A stretch of DNA of 64,000 nucleotides from Dehalococcoidia bacterium. Its GTDB lineage: Bacteria > Chloroflexota > Dehalococcoidia > SM23-28-2. The position numbers and the translations under genes were made by a program. Shown piece by piece: positions 36,284 through 63,394 of this stretch (its first letter is position 1; each line of letters opens with the position of its first letter). The notes beneath the pieces are model-generated. The model made no database searches and was not told the origin of the DNA. It worked only from the letters and a program-made list of their open reading frames with translations. The stretch spans positions 22,294-86,293 of the forward strand of contig DAOUEZ010000033.1 of the NCBI GenBank assembly GCA_034429995.1, written 5' to 3'.

Positions 36284-36298
36284 GGCTATCCCTCCTCG

Positions 36299-37168: not shown

Positions 37169-37171
37169 GGC

Positions 37172-38119: not shown

Positions 38120-38151
38120 GGGCAGACTCTGTGCTCGGGCCTAGCCTGTAC

Positions 38152-39365: not shown

Positions 39366-39446
39366 ACGCCGAGAGTCTGACCGGCGACGAGGCTCGCGAC
39401 GCCGAGGCCTGAGAAGAGGTCGGTGTTAGCGATGTGCTGGGCTGTG

Positions 39447-42571: not shown

Positions 42572-42597
42572 AGGAGCGCTGCTGAACGGAAACGCCT

Positions 42598-42720
42598 CCC
42601 GAGGGGCCCTTTTCCGTATCTGGAGTCTGGAGGGTCGGGGGGGATTCGAACCGACGACTCCTGCATTGAGAGTCAGGAGTTCTTTCGCTGAGTTAGCAAC
42701 TCAACGGCATCAACCGTCGC
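42598..42720 (-). repeat. Copy B of the conserved noncoding element family (tRNA-like T-arm/acceptor-CCA at the minus-strand 3' end). Shares a 3' tail with copy D. Ends in a 6-bp hairpin 'CTCCTG...CAGGAG'.
   Basis: Minus strand '...GGAGTCGTCGGTTCGAATCCCCCCCGACCCTCCAGACTCCAGATACGGAAAAGGGCCCC'. ~40-nt block nearly identical to copy A ('GGAGTCGTGGGTTCGAATCCCACCCGGCCCTCCAGA'). Confidence 0.5.
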
Positions 42721-43007
42721 CAGTGGGGACACGAGATGATGTAGCACTCGACCAAGCGAGCCCCGACGACCTGCTTGGAGGGAAGAAGGTCACCCCGAAA
42801 CGCAGGCCTAATTGTTAACCCCTTAGATTCAAAAATCGGGATGGATTTCGAGGGCATGCGGCCGGCGGCGGCCGAACCCTCACCCCAGGCGCTCGCCCAT
42901 CCGGTCCGCCGGGCTTAACCGCACCATGCGCTGCTTATTCCCCTTGCCATGGCGAACCTGAATGCGCTGGCTCTCGAAGTCTACGTCCTTGAGTCGAAGG
43001 CTGTCGC

Positions 43008-44231
43008 CTACAGGGTAAGCTCAACGCCGCTGAGGGAGAGTTCCTCCTCTGTGACCATCCTCAATGGGGGGGCGGCGCTGACATCCATTCCGGGCTCGTA
43101 CTTGAAGATGGGGGCGAGTTGCCTATTGAGCATGAAGATCAGGCGGGACAACGGGATCTCCACAGGACAGGCATCCTCGCACTGACCGCAGTTCACGCAG
43201 GAATCCATGACGTGTACGGCCCGGATCATGTGGAACATGGCGTCAGGCGGGATCTCGCCCCTGGGCACTACGCCTCTGTCTGCCTCCAGATAGCAGTCCT
43301 TGCAGTAGCAGATGGGGCAGGCGTCCCTACAGCCAAAGCACTTGGTGCACTGGCTGAACTGGCCGGAAGGTCCGAACCAGTAATCGAACCGCTCCTCAAG
43401 ACTCATCGCCTGGAACTCGCCGAAATCTCTCTCCTGCCACTGCCGCGCCAGTTCGGTGGCCGCCCTGTCCTGTGCTCTCCTCGATTCGAGGGCCTCGGCG
43501 CTCGGCTGCTCCACTTTGATGTGGCCGCCTTCGACCGCCCTGTCGATGAAGTCGGCTCCTCTCTCGGAACAGACCTCTATGAACGTGGCCTCCCTACCCT
43601 CTGCTCCCCACTTCCCGCAGGCTATATCCGCCATGGTCGGGATGTTGATGTCGCATCTGCGGCAGTTCTCCCTCCGCCCGAGCCCTTTGGCCTCCAGCTC
43701 TGCCAAATCCCTTTCTTTCTCGCTGCCGTCCCGCAGCCTTATCTTCAGCTTGTCGTCCTCGATGTCCTCACTGGCAACATCGAAGGGATCCACGCCGAAT
43801 TCCTCTTCCATCATCCGCTGGGCTACCACCGGACGCATGGTGCCGGTGCAGTTCAGGCCGATGAGGAGTACATTCTCAAGGTTGATCTGGTTGCGCTTGA
43901 CCAGCTCGATGATCGCCTTGGCGTCGCACGGCTTGCAAGTCACGGCTACCCTCAAGTCGGAAGCACCGTCGAGGAATTCCTTGAGGCAGCGGGCCATGTT
44001 GGGGGAAACGCAGTGCAACGCTCCTGCCGTCGCCGCTACCTCTTCAGGATCATCGATCAGCACAGGGATGCCATCATACCTGTTGCCATCTCTTGCCTTG
44101 ACGGCAAGCACGGCATCGACCTGGTTACTCTCCAGGGCAAACTTGAGGAGCGAGGTAACCGCACCCCCGCTTTCGGCCCTGTCCACTATTGCCGGGTCTG
44201 GGGACCAAGCCCAGTAGGTATCCCCCTTCAT
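43008..44231 (-). CDS. FrhB/FdhB-family (coenzyme F420 hydrogenase/dehydrogenase beta-like) subunit with C-terminal 2x[4Fe-4S] ferredoxin domain; formate dehydrogenase beta subunit.
   Basis: N-terminal FrhB_FdhB-like region. C-terminal 'CTKCFGCRDACPICYC...CVNCGQCEDACPVEI' cluster motifs. Immediately downstream of fdhA. Confidence 0.65.
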   Translation of the reverse strand: MKGDTYWAWSPDPAIVDRAESGGAVTSLLKFALESNQVDAVLAVKARDGNRYDGIPVLIDDPEEVAATAGALHCVSPNMARCLKEFLDGASDLRVAVTCKPCDAKAIIELVKRNQINLENVLLIGLNCTGTMRPVVAQRMMEEEFGVDPFDVASEDIEDDKLKIRLRDGSEKERDLAELEAKGLGRRENCRRCDINIPTMADIACGKWGAEGREATFIEVCSERGADFIDRAVEGGHIKVEQPSAEALESRRAQDRAATELARQWQERDFGEFQAMSLEERFDYWFGPSGQFSQCTKCFGCRDACPICYCKDCYLEADRGVVPRGEIPPDAMFHMIRAVHVMDSCVNCGQCEDACPVEIPLSRLIFMLNRQLAPIFKYEPGMDVSAAPPLRMVTEEELSLSGVELTL

Positions 44232-44233
44232 GC

Positions 44234-46258
44234 CTACACCTCTTCCTTGACGGCGCACACCTTGAACTCTGGCATCTTGCTTTTGGGATCAAGAGCGGGG
44301 TTGGTGAGGATGTTGGCGCATGACTCCGAGAAATGGAAGGGCACAAATATGGACCCTTGTGGCACACGGCCGGTCACCTTGGCGGTGACCTCTATCCTCC
44401 CTCGCCTTGTCTCCAGGGTGATCCGACTGCCGCTACTGATGCGCAACCTGGTGGCGTCCTCGGGGTTGATCTCGGCGTACGCTTCAGGCACCTCGCTGTT
44501 CAGCGTATCTGTCCTCCGGGTCATTGTCCCTGTGTGGTAATGAAAGAGATTCCTGCCGGTGATGAGCACGTCGGGATAGTCTGCGTCCGGCACTTCCGCC
44601 GGAGGCTTGTACTCCACCGCCTGAAAATGACCCAGCTTGTCAGGCGTGCCGAAGGCCTCAACGAACATGGTAGGAGTGCCTGGGTGGTCCTCGGAAGGGC
44701 AGGGCCACTGAATGCCCCCCGCCTTCTTCTCCAGTCTCTCGTAGGTGATCCCCTTGTATTGGGGGACGCAGCTCCTGATCTCTTCGAATATCTCTCCCGC
44801 CGAGGCATAGTTGAACTTGTCCTTGTAGCCCATCTTCTCCGCCACTCTGCAAATGATCCACCAGTCGGGCATGGCCTCGCCGGGAGGGTCGATGACCTTG
44901 TTGATCTTCTGCACCCTCCTGTCCACCCAGGCGTGGATGCCTTCTCTTTCTACCCAACAGGCAGCTGGCAGCACCACGTCGGCGTGCTTGGCTGTCTCGG
45001 TCAGGAATATGTCCTGAACCACGAAGAAGTCGAGGTTATCCAGAGCCCTCTTGACGTTCGTAGAGTCGGGGGCAGCCATGACGGGGTTTGTGCCCACTAG
45101 GTAGATAACTTTGCATTTGTGAATAATGTCCATGTAGGTAAGGCCGGGTTCAGTGGGTAGGTGCTCTACCCCCCAGGCGTTCTGGAAGAACTCGGCGGAT
45201 TCCTGGCCTACTTGCTTGAATCCGGGGTAAAAGACATTGACGCAGCCCATGTCCCCTGCGCCCTCACCGTTGATCTGCCCTCTCATGGGGTTCACACCGG
45301 TCCCCGGCTTGCCGATGTGCCCGGTCAGAAGGGCCAGGTCGGCGAGGGCCGCCACATTGTCTGAGCCGGTGGTGTGCTGAGTGATGCCTTCATCAAAGAG
45401 GATGCAGCCCCTCTCTGCCTTGGCGTAGGCGATAGCCGCCTCTTTGATCTTTTCCGCTGCCACGCCGCTGATATCTGCGGCCTGCTCAGGGGAGGTGGCG
45501 GACAGAGCAGCGCGAAGCTCATCGAACCCCGCAGTCCTCGTCTCAATGAACTCTTTGTTCTCAAGGCCCTCGGCAAGGATAGCGCTCATCATGCCGTTGA
45601 TGAGCGCTACATCCGTGCCCGCTTGCAGTTGCAGGTGGAGGTCGCCCAGGTAGCTCACGGTCACGGTCCTTCGGGGGTCTATGACGATGACCGTGGCCCC
45701 CTTCCTCTTGGCCCGAAGCACCTTCTTGGCGATCATGGGGAAGGTCTCTTTGATGTTGACGCCAGCGATGAGTATGCAGTCGGCCCGCTCGATGTCGAGC
45801 TGGGAGGTCTCCATGGTGCCCGAGCCCACCGTGGGCAGGAGGCCGGCCACCGACGCCGAGTGGCAGAACCTGGCGCAGTATTCGATGCTGTTGGTGCCCA
45901 TGATGACCCGGGCGAACTTCTGCAGGACGTAAGCTTCCTCGTTGGTGCCCTTGCCGGAGGCGATGGCACCGAAGGACTCCGGCGGAACCCCCTTCAGCTT
46001 CTCGGCGACGAGGCTCAGCGCCTCTTCCCAAGAAGCCTCCCTGAACGTCCCATTCTTTCGAATCAAGGGCTTCTTGAGCCGATCGTCACTGTAGAGGAAT
46101 TTGTAGGCATTTTTCCCCTTGGGACAGTTTGTCCCTTCGTTGACCGGGTGTTCCTTCCACGGTTCCTCGCCCACTATCCTCCCGTCTTTCAGTACGAGGT
46201 ACATTCCGCAGCCGCAACCGCAGTAGGGACATATCGTCGGCACATATTGCAGATTCAC
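44234..46258 (-). CDS. fdhA: Molybdopterin (bis-MGD) formate dehydrogenase catalytic subunit, Cys-type (no in-frame TGA).
   Basis: N-terminal 4Fe-4S 'CPYCGCGCG'. 'ARFCHSAS' active-site region with Cys. MopB and C-terminal molybdopterin dinucleotide-binding regions. GTG start overlaps the upstream stop (GTGA). Confidence 0.85.
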   Translation of the reverse strand: MNLQYVPTICPYCGCGCGMYLVLKDGRIVGEEPWKEHPVNEGTNCPKGKNAYKFLYSDDRLKKPLIRKNGTFREASWEEALSLVAEKLKGVPPESFGAIASGKGTNEEAYVLQKFARVIMGTNSIEYCARFCHSASVAGLLPTVGSGTMETSQLDIERADCILIAGVNIKETFPMIAKKVLRAKRKGATVIVIDPRRTVTVSYLGDLHLQLQAGTDVALINGMMSAILAEGLENKEFIETRTAGFDELRAALSATSPEQAADISGVAAEKIKEAAIAYAKAERGCILFDEGITQHTTGSDNVAALADLALLTGHIGKPGTGVNPMRGQINGEGAGDMGCVNVFYPGFKQVGQESAEFFQNAWGVEHLPTEPGLTYMDIIHKCKVIYLVGTNPVMAAPDSTNVKRALDNLDFFVVQDIFLTETAKHADVVLPAACWVEREGIHAWVDRRVQKINKVIDPPGEAMPDWWIICRVAEKMGYKDKFNYASAGEIFEEIRSCVPQYKGITYERLEKKAGGIQWPCPSEDHPGTPTMFVEAFGTPDKLGHFQAVEYKPPAEVPDADYPDVLITGRNLFHYHTGTMTRRTDTLNSEVPEAYAEINPEDATRLRISSGSRITLETRRGRIEVTAKVTGRVPQGSIFVPFHFSESCANILTNPALDPKSKMPEFKVCAVKEEV

Positions 46259-49071: not shown

Positions 49072-50715
49072 TCACTCCAGCACCGCGCCCTTTGCGGCCG
49101 AGCTCACCAGCTTGACGTAGCGCCGCATGAAACCGGACGGGATCTCCCGTTCCACGGGCTTCCAGCCCTTCAGGCGGTTCCTGATTTCCTCGTCGTTCAG
49201 CTTCACCTCGAGCTTCCTGGCCGGGATATCAATGAAAATCTCGTCCCCGTCCCTCACGGCGGCAATGGGCCCGCCGACATAGGCCTCAGAGGAGACATGG
49301 CCAATGCAGGGACCGGCCGTGGCGCCTGAAAACCTACCGTCGGTGATCAGGGCCACGCGCCTGAAGCCAGCCAACTCCAATCCCAGAGTCACCGCCAGGG
49401 TCTCCGCCATCCCGGGGCCGCCCTTGGGCCCTTCGTTCCGGATCACGACTACCTCCCCCTCCTGGATAGTCCTTTCCCGGATGGCCTTCAGGCAGTCGTG
49501 CTCCGACTCGAAGACGCGCGCCTTCCCGGAGAAGACAAGCATATCCTTGGCGACAGCCGATTGCTTCACTACAGCGCCCTCCGGCGCCAGGTTCCCCGTT
49601 AGAATGACCGTACTCCCCTCCGGCATATGGGCATTCGCCTTGTCAGGAATGATCGTCTCATTCAGGATAACAGCCCCGTTGATGATATCACCGGTGGTCT
49701 TACCGGTGACGGTGAGGGCGTCGAGGTGGAGATCCTCTGCCAGCCGCCTCATTACCGCGGGAATGCCCCCGGCCATGTAGAGGTCGGTGACGCCATAAGG
49801 CCCGTTGGGCGATATGGCGCAGAGGGTGGGGATTCTCTTGTTGAAGTCGTTGAAGACCTTCAGCGGGAGGTCGAAGCCGACCTCATGAGCCAGAGCCGGC
49901 AAGTGAAGGGTGGAATTCGTCGAGCCGCCGATGGCCAGGTCTACCATGACCGCGTTCTCGATGGCCTTGGGAGTCAGAATCTTGTCCGCTGTGAGCTCCT
50001 CTTCCACCATCTCCACGATCCGCTTTCCCGCCATCCGAGCGAAAAGGAGCTTCTCCACATGATAGGCAGGGACGTTCGCCGAACGGGGCAGGGAGAGGCC
50101 CAACGCCTCGGTGAGGCACTGCATGGTGTTGGCGGTTCCCATCAGCTCACACGCACCGCAGGTTGCGGGCGTGGCCGTCGCGAGCTTGTCCCCCAGGTCC
50201 TCGTAAGAGTCGCGGTCGACGCTCCCCTTAAAGGTGTTCTTGAAGCGGATGCTCCATGCGCTGGGACCGCCCGTGATGAAGATGGCGGGGAGATTCAGCC
50301 GGGCCGCCGCCATCAGCATCCCAGGGACGATCTTGTCGCAGCCGGCAATGAACACGACACCGTCGTACATCATGCTTCGCACGTGGGTTTCGACGATATC
50401 CGCAATCAGGTCCCGCTGGGCCAGGACAAACCGCATCCCCTCATGCCCCTCGGTGATCCCGTCGCAGGGGGCTGGCACGCTGAACTCGAAGGGGATGCCC
50501 CCAGCAGCATGCACCCCTTCCCTCACCCGCTGGGCGATGGTGTCCAGGTGCATATGGCCCGGGTTGATTTCCGTCTGAGAATTGGCGCTGGCGATGATGG
50601 GCTTCTGCTTCCCCTCCTCGATATCGATCCCCGTACCCTGGAGAATGCACTTGCGGACTAAGCTGATAGGGAAGTCTTTGTCATCAAAAATAAGATTACT
50701 CTTGGGTTTCTTCAC
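49072..50715 (-). CDS. IlvD/EDD-family dehydratase (short type; sugar-acid or dihydroxy-acid dehydratase).
   Basis: 'PCDGITEGHEGM' and 'CDKIVPGMLMAAARLNLP' Fe-S cluster ligand regions. 547 aa. Confidence 0.8.
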   Translation of the reverse strand: MKKPKSNLIFDDKDFPISLVRKCILQGTGIDIEEGKQKPIIASANSQTEINPGHMHLDTIAQRVREGVHAAGGIPFEFSVPAPCDGITEGHEGMRFVLAQRDLIADIVETHVRSMMYDGVVFIAGCDKIVPGMLMAAARLNLPAIFITGGPSAWSIRFKNTFKGSVDRDSYEDLGDKLATATPATCGACELMGTANTMQCLTEALGLSLPRSANVPAYHVEKLLFARMAGKRIVEMVEEELTADKILTPKAIENAVMVDLAIGGSTNSTLHLPALAHEVGFDLPLKVFNDFNKRIPTLCAISPNGPYGVTDLYMAGGIPAVMRRLAEDLHLDALTVTGKTTGDIINGAVILNETIIPDKANAHMPEGSTVILTGNLAPEGAVVKQSAVAKDMLVFSGKARVFESEHDCLKAIRERTIQEGEVVVIRNEGPKGGPGMAETLAVTLGLELAGFRRVALITDGRFSGATAGPCIGHVSSEAYVGGPIAAVRDGDEIFIDIPARKLEVKLNDEEIRNRLKGWKPVEREIPSGFMRRYVKLVSSAAKGAVLE

Positions 50716-51174
50716 AACGGCCTCCTGCTCAAACGCTTATGAACACCTTCCCGTCGCCATTGACATCACCCACAGCCACTGACCGCCCAAAGTAGGCGTC
50801 TACCTGGGGGTTAGGGATATCCTAAGTGAAGATTGGGCTATGATTCCAATCCCAATGCATTGCTCCATGGACGTCTCTGTGAGATCTCCTCATCGGAAGA
50901 GAGCAAACCTAGCATGAAGGAATCGACACACTACGCTTTCACGTGGAGAGAGCGGCTGAGCGGTCTTATCAAGGCAGCGAGCCGGGCAAGATCGTTCATG
51001 GTCCTGGATTCGACTTATGAGTCATAGGCAAGAATAGCACATTAGGACAGAGGCCGGGTTTGCAGATGTCGACAACATTCGCTGCACGACATTAGCGCCG
51101 GAGCCAAACAGGTAGAGAGCCTGCCTCAGAAGCAGAAAATCATCGGTCGGCGATCAGTGCCGTCAGGCGACCCG

Positions 51175-51299
51175 GATTGTCAATCAGGACGTGCTGGCCA
51201 GATGGATCATGCGGGCGGGTACCCCACAGCCTCGTGGCTAGCCCAAATAGCTCAGCACGTCAACCCTCCAGATATGGCTAACATTTTGGCACCCCACAG
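51175..51299 (-). repeat. Copy C of the conserved noncoding element family; lacks the tRNA-like T-arm portion. Sits at the edge of a low-GC island.
   Basis: Contains 'ttgtcaatcaggacg', 'ggctagcccaaatagctcagcacgtcaaccctcc' and 'ttggcaccccacag' blocks shared with A and D. Confidence 0.45.
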
Positions 51300-51334
51300 G
51301 TATATGATCTGAAGATGGTAGCGAGGGGCCGGGG

Positions 51335-51988
51335 ATGCATGCTTATTATCCAGAGTCGAAGGTTGAAGTCACCGGGTTTATAGCAAAACATTATGATCTA
51401 GTAATGGATATTATAACGTTGGGTAAGTATTCTTCTTTCATACGAAAAGCTGTTCGATTAATGGCAATTAGGCCAGATGATAAAATTCTTGATTTAGGGG
51501 CAGGGACAGGTAGGAATGCCTGTTTGATGATGAGATATCTTTCTGCAAGAGGAGAATTGGTAGCACTTGATATCTCTGAAGAGATGATTTCGCAATTCAA
51601 AAAGAATTGCGGCCATTTTTCCAATGCTGCAATCATCAATAAGAGGATCGACCAGGATCTAAGCTATGAAGGGTATTTTGAGAAGGTTTTTATTTCTTTT
51701 GTGTTGCATGGATTTCCTCAGGAGGCTAGGGACCAGATTATTAGGAATGCCTTTAAGGCATTAAAAAAGGATGGGACATTTTTTATCCTGGACTACAATG
51801 AATTTTCGCTAAAAGAAATGCCTTTCTATCTAAGGATTCCTTTTAAACTCATAGAGTGCCCTTACGCGTTTGATTTTATCGAAAAAGATTGGAAAGAGCT
51901 ATTGTCCTCGCAAGGGTTCAGCAATTTTAGGGAGCATCCCTTCTTCGGCGGTTATGGACGATTGCTTAGCGGGGTAAAATCGATATGA
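51335..51988 (+). CDS. Class I SAM-dependent methyltransferase, encoded in a low-GC (~40%) island.
   Basis: 'ILDLGAGTGRNA' motif I. AT-rich codon usage contrasts with the rest of the window. Confidence 0.65.
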   Translation: MHAYYPESKVEVTGFIAKHYDLVMDIITLGKYSSFIRKAVRLMAIRPDDKILDLGAGTGRNACLMMRYLSARGELVALDISEEMISQFKKNCGHFSNAAIINKRIDQDLSYEGYFEKVFISFVLHGFPQEARDQIIRNAFKALKKDGTFFILDYNEFSLKEMPFYLRIPFKLIECPYAFDFIEKDWKELLSSQGFSNFREHPFFGGYGRLLSGVKSI

Positions 51989-52485
51989 TAGAGCAACTGA
52001 GCTTTAAGTTGAAGCGGATTGGGGTCATTCGCACCCCGTATATAGACAACGCACCATATCAGCCGCTGGATGAAGCCAAAGGAGATTTCCGTGTAGTCGT
52101 TGATTCCCAATATGCGGACGGGCTTTATAAGCTTGCGAAATTCCATTATATCTACGTCATCTATTACATACACCACATTGTGCGAAGATTGTCAATGATT
52201 GTATCTCCTCCATGGGCCGGCGGTGCGAGGGTTGGCCTGTTTGCAAGCAGGTCACCAGTCCGCCCAAATCCCATTGGTCTTAGCGTTGTTCGCATAAAAT
52301 CCATTGTAAATAACGAAATCCACACATCAGGCTTGGACGTGTTTGATGGAACCCCGCTTCTTGATATCAAACCCTACATAAACGATCTGGATTCCAAATG
52401 TGATGCCAATTATGGCTGGATTGAAGAGATGGATGACAAGGAACATCTCCTTTTACATATCAAGGGTATTCCTCATGACTACTGA
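51985..52485 (+). CDS. TsaA/TrmO (YaeB, UPF0066)-like SAM-dependent methyltransferase domain protein.
   Basis: 'IGVIRTPY', 'FHYIYVIYY', 'GLFASRSPVRPNPIGLSVVRI' and 'DGTPLLDIKPYI' match TsaA family motifs. ATGA overlap with the upstream methyltransferase. Confidence 0.65.
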   Translation: MIEQLSFKLKRIGVIRTPYIDNAPYQPLDEAKGDFRVVVDSQYADGLYKLAKFHYIYVIYYIHHIVRRLSMIVSPPWAGGARVGLFASRSPVRPNPIGLSVVRIKSIVNNEIHTSGLDVFDGTPLLDIKPYINDLDSKCDANYGWIEEMDDKEHLLLHIKGIPHDY

Positions 52486-52681
52486 GATAATGCAGATGAG
52501 AGCAACTTCATATAACGGCGAGTATGCGGTTCGCTTACGCTCGGTCAAGTCCCGGAAGTTGTTGAAATTGGTTGAAGGGCGGCTCCCCTCCAGATACGAT
52601 TCATGTCCTGCGCGACAGCAGCAAAGATGCGCAGGACCGATGTGGGTGGTCAGCAACTTTCGGAATCTGTATAAGCAGTTC

Positions 52682-53623
52682 CTAATGGACACCTGGAGGC
52701 TTGCTCTTGCTCCCCAGGAGGCGATAGCGTATCGCCCAAGGGAAAGGAGCAGGCAATGCCACAGGAACGTCCTCCAGGGGATAGTCGGAGCCGGGCCACC
52801 AGAACTGAAGCTCATCGAGCGTATCGCCGAACTTCTCCGTTACGAAATCGAGATCAGGCCTGGGACCACAGAAATGGGTTGTAACCGGCACATCGCGGCC
52901 CATCACCTCTCTGACCCTCTCTTTGATCCTCTCCAGGCCCTCCATCTCCAGCCGGGCTATCTCCTCCTTGAACTCCGGGAGGGCGAGGTCCTTATCCAGG
53001 CTGGCGAAACCGTAGTTGATATTCGTTAGCCTGTCTTTCCAGGGCTCAAGGCTGCCCAAGTAATAATCTACGGTCCAATCCATCATCACTCTTTCTACCG
53101 CCCCGAAGACGGCTTCCGGAAAGAGGATCAGGTCCCTCAGGGCCTCTTTTACTCCCACTAGGAGGGCAAGGTTGGACACCGGCCCATAGCCTCCCTGCCT
53201 GAAGGCGACTTTGTCGCCGATTTCGTCGGAAACGATCTCGGAGGCCTTGGCCAGCACTTTGGCTCTCTCTCCTGCGAAGGGGTCGCGATATTCGAGCTCC
53301 TCGTAGACCTTCGGGTCGGGCCTCGTGCGGTCGGCGAGCGTCTTCTTGGGGTAGATGAGGCTGTCAGTGATGTAGACCTCCACCCCGTACGGCTCCAACG
53401 CCCACCACAGGTCGGAGTTCACCACGGACACGTCCGTCTTGTACTTCTGCACGTACCTGATGTGGCCAAGGGCTATCTTATCTGGATCGAAAGCAAACTG
53501 GCGCATGGAAACGCCCGACAGAGCCAGAGCCAGGTCAACCGACCAGTGCAGGAGCGGCACCTTGTCGGGCGTCTCTCCATGCAGATAGCACAGTAACCTT
53601 TCTGCCCCCGTCATCTCAGCCAT
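52682..53623 (-). CDS. URO-D-fold MtaA-like methyltransferase homolog. 313 aa (somewhat short); possibly decayed.
   Basis: 'ERLLCYLHGETPDKVPL' N-terminus resembles MtaA-like enzymes at 28650 and 29888. The opposite-strand ORF 52400..53029 was judged spurious. Confidence 0.4.
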   Translation of the reverse strand: MAEMTGAERLLCYLHGETPDKVPLLHWSVDLALALSGVSMRQFAFDPDKIALGHIRYVQKYKTDVSVVNSDLWWALEPYGVEVYITDSLIYPKKTLADRTRPDPKVYEELEYRDPFAGERAKVLAKASEIVSDEIGDKVAFRQGGYGPVSNLALLVGVKEALRDLILFPEAVFGAVERVMMDWTVDYYLGSLEPWKDRLTNINYGFASLDKDLALPEFKEEIARLEMEGLERIKERVREVMGRDVPVTTHFCGPRPDLDFVTEKFGDTLDELQFWWPGSDYPLEDVPVALPAPFPWAIRYRLLGSKSKPPGVH

Positions 53624-53970
53624 TAGACTCCCTCCCTAAGTTCGCGCAGCAATCTGTTCGCCTCTTCCACCGCCTGGGGAGCGTTTGGGGCCCAGCCATC
53701 GGCTCCTATCTCCGCCGCCCATCTATCGGAGGTTACGGCGCCGCCGACGATGACCTTAAGGTTGTCTCTCAGGTCTCTGGCCTGCAGCATCCCTATCGTC
53801 GCTCTCTGCAAGGGGAGGCAGGCTATGATCATGCTGGCCAGAGCCCGCTTTGCTGCCGCCTCGGCCTCAAAGTAGTTGAAGGCCAAGAAACTCTCGACTA
53901 TGTCTTCTAGATGTTGTTTCATATCCTGCTCCAGCTCTTGAACCTCCGCTGGTGCTCTTCGGCAGCCCAT
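53623..53970 (-). pseudogene. Remnant of a cobalamin-binding corrinoid protein. Cap helix plus C-terminal half of the Rossmann domain; DxHxxG segment missing.
   Basis: 'KVIVGGAVTSDRWAAEIGADGWAPNAPQAVEEANRLL' parallels 'KVMIGGAPVTSAFAQDVGADGYAPDASSAVALARRLV' of 25206..25841. Only 115 aa and no His-ligand motif. Confidence 0.4.
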
Positions 53971-54159
53971 TCTAATCCCTCCACGCTCTCCTTGGGAAGG
54001 CCGCCTGCTGGAGAGAACTGCGAGAAGTCGAGCAGGCGGGGCCTGAATCCGGCATCATCAACGCTCTGGCTTCTGGCTCCTATGGCTAGGTGGTATTATC
54101 GGAGAGGCGGCTGGAATGGCTGGGGCAACACGAGCAAGCACGGCTGGTGGGAACTAAGT

Positions 54160-56434: not shown

Positions 56435-58021
56435 GTGGGCTTCAGCGAGCGAGACTTCACCAGGCCTACGGTCGCCATCGTTAACTCCTGGAGCGAGACG
56501 ACGCCCGGCCATCACCACCTGCGCGACCTGGCGATGGCGGTGAAGGAGGGCGTGCGGGAGGCGGGCGGCATGCCGGTCGAGTTCAACACCGTCGCCCCCT
56601 GCGACGGCATCGCCCAGGGGCCCGGCATGCGCTACGTCCTACCCTTGAGAGACGTGATCGCCGCCTCCATCGAGCTGATGATCGAGGCTCACCGCTTCGA
56701 TGCCGTGGTCATGCTGGGCACCTGCGACAAGATCGTCCCCGCTATGCTGATGGCCGCCGCCCGAGTCAACCTGCCGACCATCTTCTTGACCGGCGGCCCT
56801 ATGCTCCCCTGGTACAAGGAGGGGCGAGCGGTCGTTCTGAGCGATGTGAAGGAGGGGATGGGCCACCGCCAAGCCGGCAAGATGAGCGAGGAGGAGTTCT
56901 ACTCGCTGGAGTGCAATGCCTGCGGCGGGCCCGGGGCTTGCGCCTTCATGGGGACGGCCAATACCATGAACTGCCTGGTGGAGGCCATGGGCCTGTCCCT
57001 GCCTGGCTGCGGCACCCTGCCCGCTGTAGCACCTGAGCGTCTCGAACTCGCTCGCGCCAGCGGCCGCCGCATCGTGGAGCTGTGGCAGAAGGATCTGCGG
57101 TTCAGCCAGGTCGCCAGCCTGGGCGCTCTGGCCAACGCGGTGAGGGTATTGCAGGCCATCGGTGGCTCCACCAATGCCGTGCTGCACCTGCTGGCCCTCG
57201 CGGAAGAATTGGACGTGGAGCTTGACCTCCAGACCTTCGACGATATCGGGCGGCAGGTTCCCCTGGTGGGGAAGTTCAAGCCGGCCTCGCCCCTGACGGT
57301 GGTCGACCTGCACGAAGCGGGCGGCGTGCCGGGGGTGCTGCGTCGGCTAGCACCCCTGCTGGATGGCGACCTGCCCAGCGTGAGCGGCCAGACCATTGGC
57401 CAGATCGCGGCGGCCGCCGCCGACTGTCATCCGGATGTCCTGCGGCCTTTGGATGACCCCCTGGCCCCAGAAGGCGGCATTGCCATCCTTCATGGCTCGC
57501 TGGCGCCGGCAGGGGCGGTGGTCAAGCAAAGCGGCGTAGAGCCGCGGATGATGCGTCACCGCGGCCCCGCTCGCGTCTTCGAGAGCGAGGAAGACCTGCG
57601 CGACGGGCTGCTCGCTCAGAAGGTGCAGGCCGGCGACGTGCTAGTCATTCGCAACGAGGGGCCCCGGGGTGGGCCGGGCATGAGGGAGCTGTCTATTCCC
57701 GCCGCCCTGCTGGTGGGCATGGGCCTGGCTGAAAGCGTGGCTATGGTCACCGATGGCCGCTTCTCGGGGGCTACTCGCGGCCCCTGCATCGGCCACGCAG
57801 CGCCGGAGGCCCACGACGGCGGGCCCATCGCCCTGGTCCACGACGGGGATCTCATCGAGATCAACATCCCCCAGCGCAGGCTCGACCTGCTGGTCGAGGC
57901 GGACACGCTGGCGCAGCGGCGGCGCCGCTGGCGACGGCGGCAATCGCCTCTCGCCGACGGTTTCCTCGCCCTCTATGCCCAGCGGGTGGGCCCAGCGGAC
58001 CGAGGGGCCGTGCTCCGCTAG
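56435..58021 (+). CDS. Second IlvD/EDD-family dehydratase. True start probably upstream of the annotated GTG at a non-standard initiation codon.
   Basis: '[10 protein letters not shown]' and '[20 protein letters not shown]'. Upstream in-frame '[18 protein letters not shown]' is the conserved N-terminal helix of this family but has no ATG/GTG/TTG. Confidence 0.75.
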
Positions 58022-58030
58022 GGAGGCGTC

Positions 58031-59104
58031 ATGGACAAACTACGGGTAGGATTCATTGGGGCAGGAAGAATAGCCGACCTGCACGCCCTCGTTTACCGGG
58101 ACAACCCCGAGGCCGAGATCTATGCCGTCTGCGATAGCCAGGAGGAGGTGGCCCGTCAGCGAGCGCAGGAGTGGGGAGCGCAAAGGTGGCTCAATGACTA
58201 CAGCGAGCTTCTCCGCGACGAGGCCCTGGATGCGGTGGAAATCCTCACGCCGCACCATCTCCACGCCGAGATGACCATCGCCGCCCTGGAGGCAGGCAAA
58301 GACGTCTCTCTCCAGAAGCCGCCAGCCGTCAACCTCGGTGAGGTCGACGCCATGATCGCCGCCGCCCAGCGCTCGGGTAAGCTGTTTCGGGTCTGCGAGA
58401 ACTTCCGCTATTATCCCCCCTACGTCAAGGCGAAGAAGCTGCTGGACGAGGGGGCCATCGGCGAGCCCCTGTCCATCCGGGTGAAGGTCATCGACGGCTC
58501 GCCTCAGTTCGGCTGGCCTGTCCCTCCTGAGGCCTGGCGCTGGCGTCTGACTGAGGCCGAATGCGGCGGTGGGCCAGCCATCTTTGACCACGGCTACCAC
58601 ATTTTCTCTATAGTGATGTACTTCCTCGGGCCAGTGGAGAAGGTCTTCGCCTGGATCGAGTGGCGGGACGTGGGACAGGGGCTGGTGGCCGATATCCCAG
58701 CCATGATCGTCTGGAAGCACCGCCAGGGGATGCGCTACGGCTCCTGGGAGACCGTGGGCTCAGCCGAACTGATGGTGCGCTCTGAATTCTATGCTAACGA
58801 CGAGTGGGTGGAGATCACGGGTAGCAAGGGCGTGATCTGGATCAACCGCTGTTCGGGGATGATGCTGGAAGGGCCGCCGCTGGTGCTCTATCGGGATGGC
58901 CAGACGAGGTCCTTCCACACGGTGGAGTCCGACTGGGGCGTGAGCTTTGTTCACGCCGGTCGAGACTTTCTGGCCGCTATCAGGGAGGGGCGCCAGTGCT
59001 CCCTCAGCGGCGGCGAGGCGCGAGAGATCCTTCAATTCTCCCTGGCTGCCCACCGCTCGGCGCGGGAGGGGCGGCAGGTGTGTCCGGAGGAGGTGACCGC
59101 CTAG
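58031..59104 (+). CDS. Gfo/Idh/MocA-family NAD(P)-dependent oxidoreductase.
   Basis: 'LRVGFIGAGRIADLHA' Rossmann N-terminus. C-terminal alpha/beta domain typical of the family. Confidence 0.8.
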   Translation: MDKLRVGFIGAGRIADLHALVYRDNPEAEIYAVCDSQEEVARQRAQEWGAQRWLNDYSELLRDEALDAVEILTPHHLHAEMTIAALEAGKDVSLQKPPAVNLGEVDAMIAAAQRSGKLFRVCENFRYYPPYVKAKKLLDEGAIGEPLSIRVKVIDGSPQFGWPVPPEAWRWRLTEAECGGGPAIFDHGYHIFSIVMYFLGPVEKVFAWIEWRDVGQGLVADIPAMIVWKHRQGMRYGSWETVGSAELMVRSEFYANDEWVEITGSKGVIWINRCSGMMLEGPPLVLYRDGQTRSFHTVESDWGVSFVHAGRDFLAAIREGRQCSLSGGEAREILQFSLAAHRSAREGRQVCPEEVTA

Positions 59105-59335
59105 CCCGACGGGGCGTGCTTGTGCCTGTCGGCGAGGGCCAGAGCGTCACGCCTCGGGGCAGGGTAACACGTGCGCTATCGCATAGGAAGGGAGAGCTGA
59201 GATGAAGGCCGCGTGTTTTGCTCGGTCATTCGGGAGGGTTTGGGCTGTGGGCGCGTCAGCCGTCTCTGCTCCCCGGGCGGGCGGTGTGCCCATCGTCCGG
59301 ACCCACTGCGGCGACGTTCACGGGCTGGTGGCTCG

Positions 59336-60709
59336 CTACTCGCCCAGGCGGCGGTTGTAGTTCTCTATGATGTCGTTGGCTTCGGCGGCTGCATCGTCGA
59401 GGGCCTCGATGGGGTCTTTCGAACCCACCACCGTCTCCTCCATAGCGGTGGCGACGACCTCTCGCACGTCCCTCATAGGGCCAAGAAGCGGGCCGAGAGA
59501 CTCTTGGGTCGATGGCGTCTCCAGGAAGAGGTCAACGGGGAGGCGAAAGAGCGGATACTCAGCTATGGCGTTCTCGGCCGCCGGCAGGTCGTAGGCAGAG
59601 ACTCGCACTGGTAGGTACCCGCTGCCAGCGAACCATTCGGCCTGCTGCTCGGGTTCCAGAAGCCACTTGATGAACTCCCAGGCCGCCTCCTGCTCCCCCT
59701 CGGGACGGCCCTTCAGGATCCAGAGGCTCCGGCCGTATACTCCCGGCAAGCCTGTCCCGCCGGGGACGCCGGGCAGACCGACCACCCCCGGCTCCACGTT
59801 CAGTCCCCCGCGCTCCAGAACGTCCACCACCGAACGCAGGGCTGATGAGGCGCTCAAGCTCATAGTGGCTCGACCGGTTCCCATCGCCAGGAGGGCATCG
59901 GCATAACTGGGGTTACGACCGACGTTGATGGCTAGCCCCTCCTCAATCATTTCGTGCCACCAGCGGAAGAAGGCCTGCCCTGCTGGACCGTCGAAGAGAA
60001 CCTCGGTGGCTCGTCCCTGGCGGCCGTTGCTGTTGTTCACATAGAAGTCGCCGTGCTCCGCCAGGGCCACGTCAAGGTACCAAGGGTTGATGTCGAGGGC
60101 AACGCCAGCGCGGAGGATGTTGCCGTGGCTGTCCTGCTTCACCAGCTTTCGGGAAAATTCTCGCACCTCCTCCAGATCCTTGGGTGGCTGCTCGGGATCG
60201 AGCCCTACCTCGCTGAAATCCAGCTTGTTGTAGTAGAGCAAAGGGACGACAATGCCGAAGGGCATCCCGTAGAGCTGACCGTCCACGGTGTAGTACTGTA
60301 TCGACTTCTCATCGAAGTCGGAAAGGTCGTAGTCCTCACGGTCGATGAACTCCTGCACCGGCCTTGCGGCCCCGCTGTCGACGAGTTTCTGAGTGTCGAC
60401 CTCGGCCAGATAGATGAGGGCTGGCACGTCCCCCGAGCTCAGAAAGGCCGTGAGCTTGAGCATCGTTTCCTCGTCGTTTCCCTGGAAAGCCATCTTGACC
60501 TTAACCTCGTCCTGCTCGGAGTTGAAACGGCGTGCCAGTCCCTGGATGGCATCCAGGTTGCTGGCCACCTCGGAGTGCCAGAAGCTGATCTCCACCGGCC
60601 CCGCCGCCGGTGTCGCACTGCCTTCTGGCTCTGCTTCCTCCTCACCACCACAGGTGGCCACGCTTGCTGCAACAATGAGCAGCATCAGGAAAATCAGAGC
60701 CTTCTTCAT
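59336..60709 (-). CDS. Second copy of the carbohydrate ABC substrate-binding lipoprotein; no adjacent permeases or ATPase.
   Basis: Same length and near-identical N-terminus ('MKKALIFLMLLIVAASVATCGG') as 34910..36283; ~85-90% amino-acid identity. DNA ~90% identical to copy 1 from ~59270 to ~60908. Confidence 0.8.
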   Translation of the reverse strand: MKKALIFLMLLIVAASVATCGGEEEAEPEGSATPAAGPVEISFWHSEVASNLDAIQGLARRFNSEQDEVKVKMAFQGNDEETMLKLTAFLSSGDVPALIYLAEVDTQKLVDSGAARPVQEFIDREDYDLSDFDEKSIQYYTVDGQLYGMPFGIVVPLLYYNKLDFSEVGLDPEQPPKDLEEVREFSRKLVKQDSHGNILRAGVALDINPWYLDVALAEHGDFYVNNSNGRQGRATEVLFDGPAGQAFFRWWHEMIEEGLAINVGRNPSYADALLAMGTGRATMSLSASSALRSVVDVLERGGLNVEPGVVGLPGVPGGTGLPGVYGRSLWILKGRPEGEQEAAWEFIKWLLEPEQQAEWFAGSGYLPVRVSAYDLPAAENAIAEYPLFRLPVDLFLETPSTQESLGPLLGPMRDVREVVATAMEETVVGSKDPIEALDDAAAEANDIIENYNRRLGE

Positions 60710-60724
60710 GGCTATCCCTCCGCT

Positions 60725-60949
60725 CTAGCCCTTGAGGGCACCAGCGGTGAAGCCCCTCACCAGCTGGCGCTGGAACAGGACGAGCAAGATCAGTATTGGC
60801 AGCGCCGAGATGACTGTCGCTGCCATGGTTATATTGAACGTGTCGACCTCGCGACCGCGCAGAGCGGCCAGACCGATCTGCACCGTGCGCATGTTGTCCT
60901 CGTTGGTCACTGCGCCCGCCTTATTCCAGTTCCTGCTCCTCGAACACAA
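60725..60949 (-). pseudogene. 3'-terminal remnant (C-terminal ~65 aa) of a MalG-like permease gene, duplicated from 36299..36520.
   Basis: 'VTNEDNMRTVQIGLAALRGREVDTFNITMAATVISALPILILLVLFQRQLVRGFTAGALKG' is nearly identical to the C-terminus of 36299..37168. Homology stops abruptly at ~60908, where the Liv-type SBP 3' end begins. Confidence 0.6.
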
Positions 60950-62222
60950 GTAGTGGGCCGAAGTACTCCCACCTGCCCTTCCCGTCCTCCACGACAGCCC
61001 TCAGCATCCTGCCGTCCTCCAGGCCCCTGTGGTCAGTGTCGGAGAAGGAGACATTCACTTCGTCTATGAACAAGTCGCTGTGAAAGTCCTTAATCGACTC
61101 CAGGGCGTCCATGAGCCCCTCTCGCGTCAGGTTATCGCAGGTTCTGCTGAGGGCCTCCACTGCCACTTCTGCCACCGTCTGGGCATAGACGGTGAAGTTG
61201 GTGGGGCTGGGCCCGCCGTACTCGCGCATGAGCCGGTAGTGCTCGGCCACGGCCGGCTCGTCAGTCCAGGCCGCCAGCTTGAGGGCCTGGAGGCTAATGG
61301 TACCTTCCAGGAGCTCAGGCGAGACGAACTGAAACATCATTTCGTCGGAATTGTTGTAGCTCAGCATCCACTGGGGATGCCAGCCCAGGCGGTCGGCCTG
61401 TTTGATGGCCTGAGAGGTGAAGCCGGGAGTGGCGACGGTAGTGACCACCTCAGCGCCGGAGTTCTTCATGTTGGTGACTTGGGAGCTGATGGAGACCGCC
61501 GCGAACTCGAAGCTCTGCTCGGAGACGATCTCGTTCTTGTCCGGGTCCAGGCCGTCCTTCACACCTTGCAGGTGGTCGAAGCCCAGGGTGATGTTCGGAT
61601 AGAGGACGGCCACCTTCTTACCAGGCAGGTTCTCAGAGATGTACTGGCCGAAGAATACCCCCTCGATCCCGCAACTGGGGATCATCTGGACCGTCCAGGG
61701 GTGCCCCTCGGGGTCGGTGCCGAACATGTGAGACCCGGCGGACAGCAGGATGTCGGGCACTTCATTTTCGTTCAGGTAGTCCCAAGTGGCGGGATGGGTT
61801 TCATCTCCCAAGGAGCCAACCATGGCGAACACCTTGTCCTGCTCCACCAGCTTCCGCACGACCTCCATGGCCTTAGCCGGGTCGTCGTTGTTGTCCTCCA
61901 CCTTGTAGACGATCTTGCGCCCGCAGACGCCCCCCTGGGTGTCGTTGATGTAGTTGAAGTAGGCTCCTGTGGCCTTGGGAATCGTGGCGTAGACCGCCCC
62001 CATGGCACCGCTAAGGGGTACATCGGCTCCCAGGAGTATCTCTGTGTCCGTGATGCCCGGCACCTCTGCCACGGCGGTAGGAGTAGCGGCCGCCGTGGCT
62101 GTGAGCGTGCCGCCAGGGGTAGGTGTCGCCTCCTCTTCTTCATCTCCGCAGGCCACTGCCAGTACCAGCAGCAGCGCTGCTAGGGCTAGGAAGATCGGCC
62201 AGAATTTGCCTAGCCTCCGCAC
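60921..62222 (-). CDS. Second copy of the Leu/Ile/Val-type ABC substrate-binding lipoprotein.
   Basis: 'MRRLGKFWPIFLALAALLLVLAVAC' + acidic linker. ~80% identity to 20098..21396 over the full length. Confidence 0.7.
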   Translation of the reverse strand: MRRLGKFWPIFLALAALLLVLAVACGDEEEEATPTPGGTLTATAAATPTAVAEVPGITDTEILLGADVPLSGAMGAVYATIPKATGAYFNYINDTQGGVCGRKIVYKVEDNNDDPAKAMEVVRKLVEQDKVFAMVGSLGDETHPATWDYLNENEVPDILLSAGSHMFGTDPEGHPWTVQMIPSCGIEGVFFGQYISENLPGKKVAVLYPNITLGFDHLQGVKDGLDPDKNEIVSEQSFEFAAVSISSQVTNMKNSGAEVVTTVATPGFTSQAIKQADRLGWHPQWMLSYNNSDEMMFQFVSPELLEGTISLQALKLAAWTDEPAVAEHYRLMREYGGPSPTNFTVYAQTVAEVAVEALSRTCDNLTREGLMDALESIKDFHSDLFIDEVNVSFSDTDHRGLEDGRMLRAVVEDGKGRWEYFGPLLVFEEQELE

Positions 62223-62410
62223 GGCTGCATCAGCCCCCTTTCTTCATCCCCTTGTTCTCAGCATGCTGGACAGTCGAGTTAGCCCCATCCTACTCACAGG
62301 CGCGAGGGTTGGCAAGGACGTAGGGATGTCCAGCTGCGCCGCTATTCGCCCTGGATCGACTGGCGGGACCGGCCTAGGCGTCTCGTTAGCAAACGGCAAG
62401 CAAATGATAA

Positions 62411-62620
62411 GGCCCCCAAGGAGGAACGCACCGTGAGGGGGCCTTTTCCGTATCTAGAGCCTGGAGAGCGGGATGGGTTTCGAACGCGTCACTGCCGAAT
62501 TGTCAATCAGGGCGTGATGGCCGCAGGGACCCCGTGGGCGGTAGCCCGCAGCCTCAAGGCTGGCCCAGATACCTGAGCCTGTCAACTCTTCAGATACAGA
62601 TGAGGTCTTGGCACGCGGCG
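62411..62620 (-). repeat. Copy D of the conserved noncoding element family, including a stable GC hairpin (62411-62446, 'GGCCCCC...GGGGGCC' + TTTT on the plus strand) and a degenerate T-arm/acceptor-CCA.
   Basis: Minus strand '...GTGACGCGTTCGAAACCCATCCCGCTCTCCAGGCTCTAGATACGGAAAAGGCCCCC' is shared with copy B. Core 'ttgtcaatcagggcg' and the 'ggctggcccagatacctgagcctgtcaactct' block are shared with A and C. Confidence 0.45.
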
Positions 62621-62637
62621 GGTTAGAGGCCTATGCC

Positions 62638-63267
62638 TTACCCAAGGGCGCCCGCCTGGGTCGTGCGAAGGAAGTTCTCATAGAGGCGAAGGCCAGACTC
62701 GGCGCTCTTCTCCGGATGGAACTGGGTGGCCACGATATTGTCCTTGGCCACAACAGCGGGGAAGGTGACACCATAATCGGTCTCGCCTACCACAATCGAA
62801 GGGTCCTCAGGCTGGGCATAGTAGCTGTGAACGAAGTAGAAGAAGGCACCGTCAGAGATGCCCTCGAAGATGGGGTGGGAGCAACGCTGTCCCACACTAT
62901 TCCAGCCCATGTGGGGCACCTTCAGACCGTCAGGGAGCCGCCGTACCCGTCCTGGCAGAATGCCCAGACAGGGGTGCTCACCGCCCTCCTCGCTCACCGA
63001 GAACAAGACCTGAAGCCCCATACAGACCCCCAGGAAGGGCCGACCGCTGGCGATGTACTCACGGATGGGCTCCACCAGGTGCCGCTGGGCCAGGTTGCTC
63101 ATGGTGTCCGCGGCGGCTCCTACCCCGGGCACGATCACGGCGTCGGCACTGTCTACTGCCCTGGGCTCGGAGGTCACCAACGGGTCGAAGCCCAGCCGCG
63201 CCAGCGCTATGGCCACGCTGCGCAGATTGCCTGCTCCGTAGTCGACGACGATGAGCTTCATATTCAT
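62638..63267 (-). CDS. hisH: Imidazole glycerol phosphate synthase glutamine amidotransferase subunit.
   Basis: 'KLIVVDYGAGNLRSV', 'GVCMGLQ' catalytic Cys, and a C-terminal His/Glu region; class I GATase of HisH type. Confidence 0.85.
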   Translation of the reverse strand: MNMKLIVVDYGAGNLRSVAIALARLGFDPLVTSEPRAVDSADAVIVPGVGAAADTMSNLAQRHLVEPIREYIASGRPFLGVCMGLQVLFSVSEEGGEHPCLGILPGRVRRLPDGLKVPHMGWNSVGQRCSHPIFEGISDGAFFYFVHSYYAQPEDPSIVVGETDYGVTFPAVVAKDNIVATQFHPEKSAESGLRLYENFLRTTQAGALG

Positions 63268-63394
63268 CCTTGTTCCAGAGTGTACTGTATCAGCCCAGCT
63301 ATGCGACAGCCGAACACCCCCGCTCGCTATCGCACCAGCGGGCGGGTGCTCCGCTAGAGACTCGTCATTGCACTCTCACCAGGGAGCGCAGATT

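Follow-up and report, generated by a model that had tools for sequence, protein, structure and literature searches.

Two described transport systems are each served by a pair of substrate-binding proteins (SBPs): HisJ and LAO (ArgT) share HisQMP2, and LivJ and LivK share LivHMGF. The locus analyzed here lies at positions 59243 to 62315 of a 64,000-nucleotide stretch of contig DAOUEZ010000033.1 from an uncultured Dehalococcoidia bacterium (assembly GCA_034429995.1; the whole stretch is called the window, and all positions are window positions unless a locus is named). It is a mosaic of duplicated gene segments that carries two intact orphan SBP genes, one for a Liv-type protein (LivSBP') and one for a UgpB-like protein (sugar SBP'). 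With a probability of roughly 0.7, the region is an old chimeric locus that arose by duplication and illegitimate (microhomology) joining and now forms a functional bicistronic unit of orphan SBP genes. As in the HisJ/LAO and LivJ/LivK systems, an extra SBP gene paralogous to an operon SBP gene lies away from the permease genes and is kept by selection, and by analogy its product is presumed to feed the same complex with another specificity or under other regulation. Unlike these systems, the mosaic pairs two unrelated protein classes (Peripla_BP_6 and SBP_bac_1/8) and retains a permease stub that records its origin, and the sharing of a translocator is putative.

The classical case of ectopic gene conversion (concerted evolution) between bacterial paralogues is tufA/tufB. 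The gene for sugar SBP' and its operon paralogue show the same discordant signal along the gene, with one part homogenised within the genome and with tracts ending in identical stretches. In contrast to tufA/tufB, the conversion is partial and asymmetric, with a diverged gene body in two species and with a 5' end and a permease remnant that remain near the donor sequence.

The 'Bug' (TctC-type) proteins of Bordetella and Cupriavidus are an over-represented family of orphan SBPs (PMC5812351). The family of LivSBP' is similar in that it comprises many SBP paralogues per genome, mostly without membrane genes nearby and scattered beside diverse catabolic genes. This resemblance concerns genome organization only, the Pfam family of LivSBP' being Peripla_BP_6 and not TctC. 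Unlike the Bug proteins, the Liv-type family belongs to the ATP-binding cassette (ABC) class and not to the tripartite tricarboxylate transporter (TTT) class, is found here in Chloroflexota/Dehalococcoidia, and consists of paralogues that have diverged by ~15–20%, share a conserved promoter and leader, and so point to a recent burst of cassette duplication. Promoter capture, or operon rewiring, also has a counterpart, namely a deletion of ~1.4 kb that fuses the Liv promoter and leader to the sugar SBP gene in the closed genome CP070630.1 (bin98) and in locus L101 (L-numbers denote loci read from related or metagenomic contigs). It differs from capture by deletion in that the fusion occurs only in relatives, while the window keeps the two-gene intermediate.

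Duplication, microhomology joining, concerted evolution and promoter capture are each already known. What is specific here is a chimeric unit that unites SBPs of two different types, Liv and UgpB-like, and still holds the stubs that document its origin. The expansion of promoter-bearing orphan Liv-type cassettes in Dehalococcoidia is apparently new to the literature, searches of which found nothing on this subject; it bears on how uncultured, small-genome sediment Dehalococcoidia broaden substrate uptake. The locus itself is an unusually complete stepwise record of the birth and retention of an orphan binding-protein gene. The steps recorded are two illegitimate junctions, donor and recipient stubs, fast protein change, parent-level constraint and ongoing conversion, and the last is the deletion in a sister species that handed a foreign promoter to the captured gene.

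Structure of the mosaic and its junctions

Alignment of the last 6 kb against the whole window by blastn gave exactly two long matches, and a repeat search returned the same pairs. Positions 59307–60910 are a direct copy of 34881–36484 (1604 nt, 88.7% identity, with differences at 181 of the 1604 positions), and positions 60919–62240 are an inverted copy of 21398–20080 (1326 nt, 84.5% identity). In base-level alignments the homology spans intergenic spacers, the promoter and gene fragments, and stops abruptly. The minus strand of the mosaic holds three open reading frames (ORFs), which are a 433-amino acid Peripla_BP_6 protein, a 61-codon permease end and a 457-amino acid SBP_bac_1/8 protein; the encoded proteins are 84.5% (sugar SBP pair) and 79% (Liv-type SBP pair) identical to their paralogues in the window. 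A previous sequence-only reading of the window had proposed a nucleotide-level mosaic of partial duplications, a break inside the permease gene, and a content of two intact orphan SBP genes, a permease remnant and a galK fragment, and the self-alignment, the base-level alignments and the ORFs confirmed all of these.

Within the direct copy, the UgpB-like SBP gene is complete, a MalG-type permease gene is represented by its final 186 nt, and galK by 15 nt. Its source-type segment (34881–36484, minus strand) is part of an intact operon that encodes a MalK-like ATPase, MalF, MalG, the SBP, galactokinase (galK) and a GH36-like glycosidase, and which is kept at ~90% identity in the relatives L090–L092, L095 and L103. 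In the operon, the full permease gene occupies 36299–37168 and the SBP gene 34910–36283, and galK starts with GTG at 34895, 14 nt past the SBP stop codon. In the mosaic, where all features lie on the minus strand, the permease remnant (60725–60910; the last 61 codons plus stop, matching 36299–36484) carries the ribosome-binding site of the next gene and is followed by the intact gene for the lipoprotein sugar SBP' (59336–60709) and then by the tail of the operon segment, a 14-nt spacer and the first five codons of galK (59307–59335). Alignment corrected the sequence-only reading on two points: the copied segment starts at 59307/34881 instead of 59270/34850, and its galK part is 15 nt (5 codons) instead of ~60 nt. 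That reading had also missed a fourth piece of the mosaic, directly after the galK fragment. Positions 59243–59303 (59243–59306 with junction 2) are a ~60-nt leftover of the recipient locus, the last ~20 codons of a major facilitator superfamily (MFS) transporter gene; they share 82% identity with the matching 3' part (L001 5703–5763) of an MFS gene that ends just past the window, and 76% with that of bin98. The MFS gene matched by this remnant starts at ~63688 and runs off the window end.

Sugar SBP' matched the Pfam families PF13416 (123.7 bits, cut-off 27) and PF01547 (104.1 bits), and its nearest solved structures were UgpB proteins (E = 2e-43, residues 41–453). Its N-terminus, MKKALIFLMLLIVAASVATC, has a hydrophobic core and a Cys, and on inspection of the sequence looks like a lipoprotein-type signal. 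The context of the parent operon (galK and a GH36 alpha-galactosidase) suggests a galactoside as ligand. The operon type (P) and the orphan-locus type (O) of sugar SBP differ at 7 of 22 residues in one loop (SGIALDIDPWYVELTVAEHGDF in P, AGVALDINPWYLDVALAEHGDF in O), which aligns with the Trp-containing loop of UgpB and presumably contacts the ligand, a point taken as a lead only. Beyond the O and P types, the next homologues are 56–64% identical. One of these, a 59%-identical UgpB-like SBP in a more distant member of the Dehalococcoidia (L008 9878–11290), is also an orphan; it lies between genes for a GNAT acetyltransferase and HEAT-repeat/HtrA-like proteins, and no ABC genes were found within 10 kb. 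In bin98 a P-type sugar SBP gene directly follows genes for a GH31 glycosidase, a phosphofructokinase-family kinase and a DeoC/LacD-family aldolase (L007 4255–9654). By analogy, this set resembles clusters for sulfoquinovose or other sugar catabolism and may hint at the ligand class.

The inverted copy contributes the gene for LivSBP' (60921–62222, 433 amino acids), an intact orphan lipoprotein gene of the Peripla_BP_6 type (Pfam E = 3e-45; PF13458 155.8 bits, cut-off 31.7; lipobox LAVAC), for which only distant solved relatives were found (best E = 1e-11). The segment comprises the whole gene and its 5' leader (62223–62286), which is conserved in the alignments and has a Shine-Dalgarno sequence and a small hairpin, GGCTGATGCAGCC, right before the GTG start. 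Beyond an indel, a shared promoter patch extends the match to ~62315; there a consensus scan placed a sigma-70-like promoter of the Liv-type SBP cassette, TTGCCA-N17-TAGGAT (62287–62315). The sequence-only reading had described this piece as the 3' end of a paralogue with ~80% amino acid identity; the identity holds, but the piece comprises the whole gene with promoter and leader. The paralogous cassette in the window (19984–21398, plus strand; promoter, leader and SBP gene) is itself an orphan, with its gene (20098–21396) behind the hopanoid genes shc, hpnH-like (radical-SAM/DUF3463) and hpnG-like (PNP_UDP_1) and before an HlyIII gene. The hopanoid cluster (10575–19972) also includes two tandem ORFs of 286–319 amino acids that share a 54-nt repeat, LytB and a polyprenyl synthetase, in addition to the radical-SAM/DUF3463, PNP_UDP_1 and squalene-hopene cyclase genes.

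At junction 1 (60903–60920), the 3' flank of the Liv cassette (...GGAATAAGGCG.GCGC.G.G.CCAAGG...) is joined to an internal site of the permease gene (GTGACCAACGAGG) with an imperfect microhomology, G.G.CCAA. Junction 2 (~59303–59315) joins galK codon 5 to the MFS stub, again at a point where a few bases are shared. The repeat search found no repeats of 30 nt or more flanking the Liv or the sugar segment, and Pfam detected no mobility domains in the four long ORFs flanking the mosaic (56435–63357). From these observations we infer illegitimate recombination. At the mosaic, neither an intact transposase or integrase nor flanking terminal repeats or att sites were found, and short target duplications were not covered by a systematic search; tRNA halves and decayed pieces of integrase genes are confined to other loci and to the upstream edge of the mosaic. 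A recipient locus like L088, where a Liv-type SBP gene is convergent with an MFS gene, was considered and rejected, since the MFS stub of the mosaic is co-directional with the SBP genes.

Age and origin of the two segments

The two sugar SBP genes of bin98, L007 and L009, are separated by 27 kb. Synteny with the orphan locus of the window (89.6% identity over 4.6 kb) is seen at L009, which is followed by the same GFO/IDH, ILVD-type dehydratase and TPP-enzyme genes. In front of both bin98 genes, the Liv promoter, leader and 11 Liv codons run directly into the final 50 nt of the permease remnant. Such an arrangement equals the structure in the window minus ~1.4 kb, is found in the same form in L101, and is a derived one, produced by promoter capture through deletion. 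Both junctions recur in related genomes, where the sequence-only reading had proposed to look for the mosaic. Junction 2 was retained in L007. Junction 1 was found in L170, where the LivSBP' orthologue is 92% identical and all 61 codons of the remnant are intact. It was also found in L172 and L173, where the Liv-type SBP is 86% identical, the remnant is down to 58 nt, and an amidohydrolase gene comes next.

Nucleotide distances were compared outside the 5' tract of the sugar SBP gene. The distance was 0.092 within the O clade (window O and bin98 L009), 0.07–0.10 within the P clade (window P, bin98 L007 and L090–L092), and 0.13–0.15 between the two clades. The mosaic therefore predates the split of the window species and bin98, in agreement with the old event that had been proposed.

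The same distances bear on a different origin of the sugar segment, as a xenologue: horizontal transfer from a more distant relative would have brought in a piece of the same operon, which was then joined illegitimately beside a Liv cassette. The gene-body O clade does lie outside the P clade of window, bin98 and L090–L092, an outcome that an older duplication would equally give; the region contains relics of integrative elements (tRNA halves and decayed integrase fragments), and neighbourhoods are heavily rearranged among the relatives. However, the distance between O and P is only modestly above the species distance of 0.09, no lineage was found with an O-type operon SBP (the next homologues being those at 56–64% identity), and the mosaic and its flanks hold no intact mobility gene. 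A xenologous origin is thus unlikely, and it would imply the same present-day function as an origin by duplication.

The neighbours of the sugar operon differ from one relative to another. L091 has a homologue of the hopanoid region there (5980–6107) and L092 a homologue of the MFS region (8977–9377), while in L103 (4–746) the operon lies beside a Liv-type SBP gene and a homologue of window 59156–59249. These differences point to frequent rearrangement in this clade.

The Liv segment belongs to a large family. A homology search with LivSBP' returned 1282 proteins (E ≤ 1e-30) and more than 120 clusters at 77–92% amino acid identity. The paralogue loci L087, L088, L089 and L171 all hold orphan Liv-type SBPs beside unrelated catabolic genes, and in such loci several SBP genes sometimes lie together or beside decayed integrase genes or IS110. 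At least five Liv-type genes are located on one 132-kb NCBI contig, which are the gene at 20098, LivSBP', L001 1611–2930, P0013 (identical to P0014 save for the start residue, and ~17 kb from the mosaic) and a 434-amino acid gene beside the P0014 copy in L087; four further genes were counted in L089 and three in L171.

The sequence-only reading had taken the Liv piece as a copy of the window gene at 20098–21396, capped independently by an element called repeat D. However, other paralogues are 86–87% identical to LivSBP' at the nucleotide level, as against 84.5% for the window gene, and homology with L087 (the P0014 copy) extends from 62522, inside repeat D, through hairpin, promoter, leader and coding sequence to 60903. 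It follows that the Liv piece is one product of a burst of cassette duplications and does not derive from the window gene in particular, and that repeat D is part of the duplicated cassette. Beyond the window end, at ~69–70 kb in window numbering, the 160 nt before the third Liv-type SBP open with the 3' end of another one ('EYFGP...' plus stop), and a 166-amino acid ORF lies at 992–1492 (L001 992–1610), which suggests a partial tandem copy of a Liv-type SBP gene. The same partial-tandem arrangement was seen in L089, with its four SBP genes in 7 kb.

Repeat D (62400–62621, minus strand) consists of a degenerate tRNA-like element, the 3' half of which resembles tRNA-Arg, and a GC-rich terminator-like hairpin (~62400–62447). 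Four diverged copies of the tRNA-like element occur in the window, in direct orientation on the minus strand (39445–39583, 42585–42700, 51172–51299 and 62425–62621). The T-arm and the acceptor 3' half resemble tRNA-Arg and a terminator hairpin often follows; in three of the copies a derived 'CCTGATTGACAA' motif replaces the anticodon arm. A live tRNA gene was rejected as an explanation of repeat D, since ARAGORN found no tRNA or tmRNA in the whole window. Rfam gave no match in the window at gathering thresholds, and with permissive settings it yielded nothing for repeat D and the best copy of this element beyond sub-threshold terminator-like or tRNA-like matches. The homologous site in bin98 is called as tRNA-Arg(TCT). 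Decayed fragments of tyrosine recombinases lie at ~42890–43010, beside the 42.6-kb tRNA-like copy, and beside the L087 copy, and these elements are probably relics of serial integration events. The ORF at 43008–44258 was considered as an integrase and rejected, being FrhB/FdhB-like in Pfam; the similarity to integrases is confined to a short decayed piece located downstream of this ORF.

These relics raise the question whether the Liv cassette is actively mobile, with tRNA-derived att sites as the places of site-specific recombination and with the mosaic as its cargo. The cassettes of LivSBP' and of P0013/P0014 are both preceded by the same tRNA 3' half and hairpin, the tRNA half in L087 directly follows a decayed tyrosine recombinase gene, the window holds four such halves, all in direct orientation, and IS110 adjoins the paralogue in L088. 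Against these observations, most paralogue loci (20098, L088, L089 and L171 among those examined) have no tRNA half, only fragments of integrase genes remain, neither the cassette nor the sugar segment is bracketed by repeats of 30 nt or more, and the junctions show only 4–8 nt of imperfect microhomology. Active mobility of this kind is quite unlikely.

Selection and gene conversion

Synonymous (dS) and nonsynonymous (dN) divergence were compared for the orphan and the operon genes. Between paralogues in the window, dN/dS was 0.28 for the sugar pair (dS 0.305, dN 0.084) and 0.31 for the Liv pair (dS 0.38, dN 0.117). Between orthologues it was lower: for the orphan sugar SBP gene of the window and of L009 the ratio was 0.195 (dS 0.293, dN 0.057), and 0.157 outside the conversion tract; for LivSBP' and its 92% orthologue in L170 it was 0.135 (dS 0.243, dN 0.033). 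Orthologues of the operon sugar SBP gave 0.20–0.21 (dS 0.23–0.28, dN 0.049–0.059). The orphan sugar SBP is constrained as strongly as the operon copy, and the selection on orphan SBPs that the sequence-only reading had thought possible was found for both genes (orthologue dN/dS: sugar SBP 0.16–0.20, Liv-type SBP 0.135).

A contrast of the McDonald-Kreitman type was run on codons above 100. The changes fixed between O and P comprised 18.5 nonsynonymous and 4.5 synonymous changes, compared with 128 nonsynonymous and 200 synonymous changes within the clades (Fisher p = 1.7e-4). This indicates an omega of ~1 or more on the branch that followed the duplication, and strong constraint thereafter.

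Divergence between the two sugar segments is not uniform. A value of ~10% throughout, as previously noted, is misleading, since dS climbs monotonically, starting with 0.13 for the permease remnant and 0.15 for SBP codons 1–75 and reaching 0.6 at the 3' end of the SBP gene; the gradient exists because the 5' part was homogenised by gene conversion. In the first 300 alignment columns, informative sites grouped the copies by genome (15 versus 2), while afterwards they grouped them by orthology (61 versus 14; Fisher p = 1e-7). A linker indel is likewise common to the copies of one genome.

The permease remnant differs from 36299–36484 at 8 of 186 nt (dS 0.13, dN 0.015). Only 3–4 copy-specific changes were counted in these 186 nt, compared with ~27 expected under drift since the bin98 split (P = 5e-8). 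The piece had been called a permease pseudogene; it is indeed a remnant, but it is not decaying neutrally and is kept by conversion. A function of the 61-codon ORF as a micro-protein was considered, as it is intact in the window and in L170 with a dN/dS of 0.12, and was rejected. Only 50 nt of the remnant are left in bin98, one of whose copies has lost the stop codon, and in L172 there are 58 nt, which read into unrelated sequence; conversion explains the conservation of the remnant.

P-type gene bodies were found in the context of the O locus at three loci, bin98 L007, L170 and L177. In L177 (Logan SRR8556696, 2659 nt, corresponding to window 58407–61065), the flanks are 100% identical to O and the SBP body is 100% identical to P, a pattern left either by conversion of the full-length gene in some strain very recently or by chimeric assembly. 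Time and again the operon copy replaces sequence at the orphan locus by conversion, which in some lineages has covered the entire gene. That O-type bodies persist in two species despite this conversion argues for selection on the O type.

It is very improbable that the orphan genes are non-functional leftovers, intact only through repeated repair by conversion from functional paralogues. Conversion is demonstrably frequent and does explain the near-perfect permease remnant, which itself has no plausible function. However, the orphan body has kept O-specific states in two species across a dS of ~0.29 with a dN/dS of 0.157, and conversion from P would erase such states instead of preserving them. 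Also inconsistent with leftovers are the low dN/dS between LivSBP' and its orthologue, and the deletion in bin98, which put the promoter directly before the sugar SBP gene in an arrangement that was kept in two copies.

Misassembly, which had been named as a finding that could refute the mosaic, is excluded as an explanation: although the data are metagenomic and the short contig L177 is a perfect O-flank/P-body/O-flank hybrid such as an assembler could yield, collapsed or chimeric contigs joining similar sequences of different strains are extremely improbable, given that each of the two sugar SBP proteins was found on 18 independently assembled contigs, mostly of 50–200 kb, that the copies differ at 181 of 1604 positions, and that both junctions recur in diverged relatives, including the closed 2.18-Mb chromosome of bin98. 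The exact orphan protein came from several JGI metagenomes and the NCBI metagenome-assembled genome GCA_964608485.1, 12 of its 18 contigs being 50–200 kb long, and the six mosaic loci read from these contigs were identical in layout (6/6). A metagenome scan returned mainly orthologues of the operon, and no further full-length mosaics.

Proposed transcription unit and transport function

The promoter at 62315–62287 was the only promoter-like site in 58900–62700, and no terminator-like sites were found on the coding strand between the genes for LivSBP' and sugar SBP'. It matches TTGCCA-N17-TAGCAT at 19984–20012, and the cassette promoter is also present upstream of L087, L088 and both sugar SBP genes of bin98, as is the leader. 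No riboswitch or leader family in Rfam accounts for the conserved leader. The gene for sugar SBP' keeps the parental ribosome-binding site, GGAGGG, inside the permease remnant, and both predicted proteins have lipoprotein-type signals.

In the reading favored here, the locus would have been assembled from three sources: a self-contained Liv-type cassette (tRNA-like relic, terminator, promoter, leader and SBP gene) from the large dispersed orphan family, a 1.6-kb internal slice of the sugar-uptake operon (permease 3' end, SBP gene and five galK codons), and, contributed by the recipient site, what is left of an MFS gene at its 3' end. Transcription would start at the Liv promoter and proceed through LivSBP' and a 211-nt spacer, in which the permease remnant supplies the ribosome-binding site, to sugar SBP', while the upstream hairpin at ~62400–62447 would insulate the unit from a GATase gene. 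Both products would be exported lipoproteins, each most likely delivering its ligand to a translocator encoded elsewhere. Sugar SBP' has no permease or ATPase genes of its own, only the 61-codon stub upstream, and may serve the MalFGK-type transporter encoded 24 kb away by the intact MalK-MalF-MalG genes (36299–39249); LivSBP' may serve a LivHMGF-type transporter encoded outside the window. The outcome would be a widened or shifted substrate range and a second sugar SBP under control of the Liv promoter. After the duplication, the orphan sugar SBP passed through a phase of rapid amino acid change and has since been under purifying selection that equals the constraint on the operon gene, and ectopic conversion from the latter keeps overwriting its 5' end and the permease remnant. 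The sequence data show the anatomy and age of the locus, the selection, the conversion and the conservation of the promoter; co-transcription, docking to the translocator of the operon and an altered ligand specificity are predictions.

Several points weigh against this reading. Co-transcription of LivSBP' and sugar SBP' is suggested by consensus scans only, and the pairing of SBPs with translocators is putative. No LivHMGF genes occur anywhere in the 64-kb window, and no genes for a LivH/LivM permease or a LivG/LivF ATPase lie next to the Liv-type paralogues examined; a cognate translocator for LivSBP' was thus not found in either place. The lipobox of sugar SBP' is VATC, with an unusual Thr at -1, compared with VAAC in all relatives. 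Both sugar SBP genes of bin98 that are driven by the Liv promoter lie outside any ABC operon, and if bin98 has no MalFGK-type operon, the model of a shared translocator would be weaker. The excess of fixed amino acid changes could reflect relaxed constraint rather than adaptation. Finally, L170 and L177 could be assembly chimeras between two similar loci because their contigs are short, whereas L007 is part of a closed chromosome.

A broader reading can be put forward tentatively. The Liv-type SBP genes of this clade may be portable cassettes of promoter and binding protein that proliferated recently (~15% divergence, dozens of copies) and seed new regulatory units at their sites of insertion. 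The mosaic would then be the capture, by one such cassette, of a sugar SBP that gained a new ligand specificity in a burst of amino acid change. If true, the sugar SBP of the sister species took over the cassette promoter outright, and the cassettes would offer streamlined sediment bacteria a general route to diversify uptake without duplicating membrane transporters.

Three other features of the window were recorded. The genes at 49072–50715 (minus strand) and 56435–58021 (plus strand) are inverted paralogues of the dihydroxy-acid/6-phosphogluconate dehydratase family with 70–79% nucleotide similarity in patches, and this pair is another, older duplication in the same neighbourhood. The region 50000–54000 has a GC content of 0.52–0.55, compared with ~0.63 elsewhere, carries methyltransferase, TrmO-like and URO-D-like genes, is flanked by one of the tRNA-like relics, and may be foreign DNA. 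An ORF of 360–372 amino acids, which had no Pfam match, contains a 12-nt periodic GTG/GGC-rich repeat at 23028–23147, and to judge from its sequence it probably encodes a low-complexity secreted or cell-surface protein.

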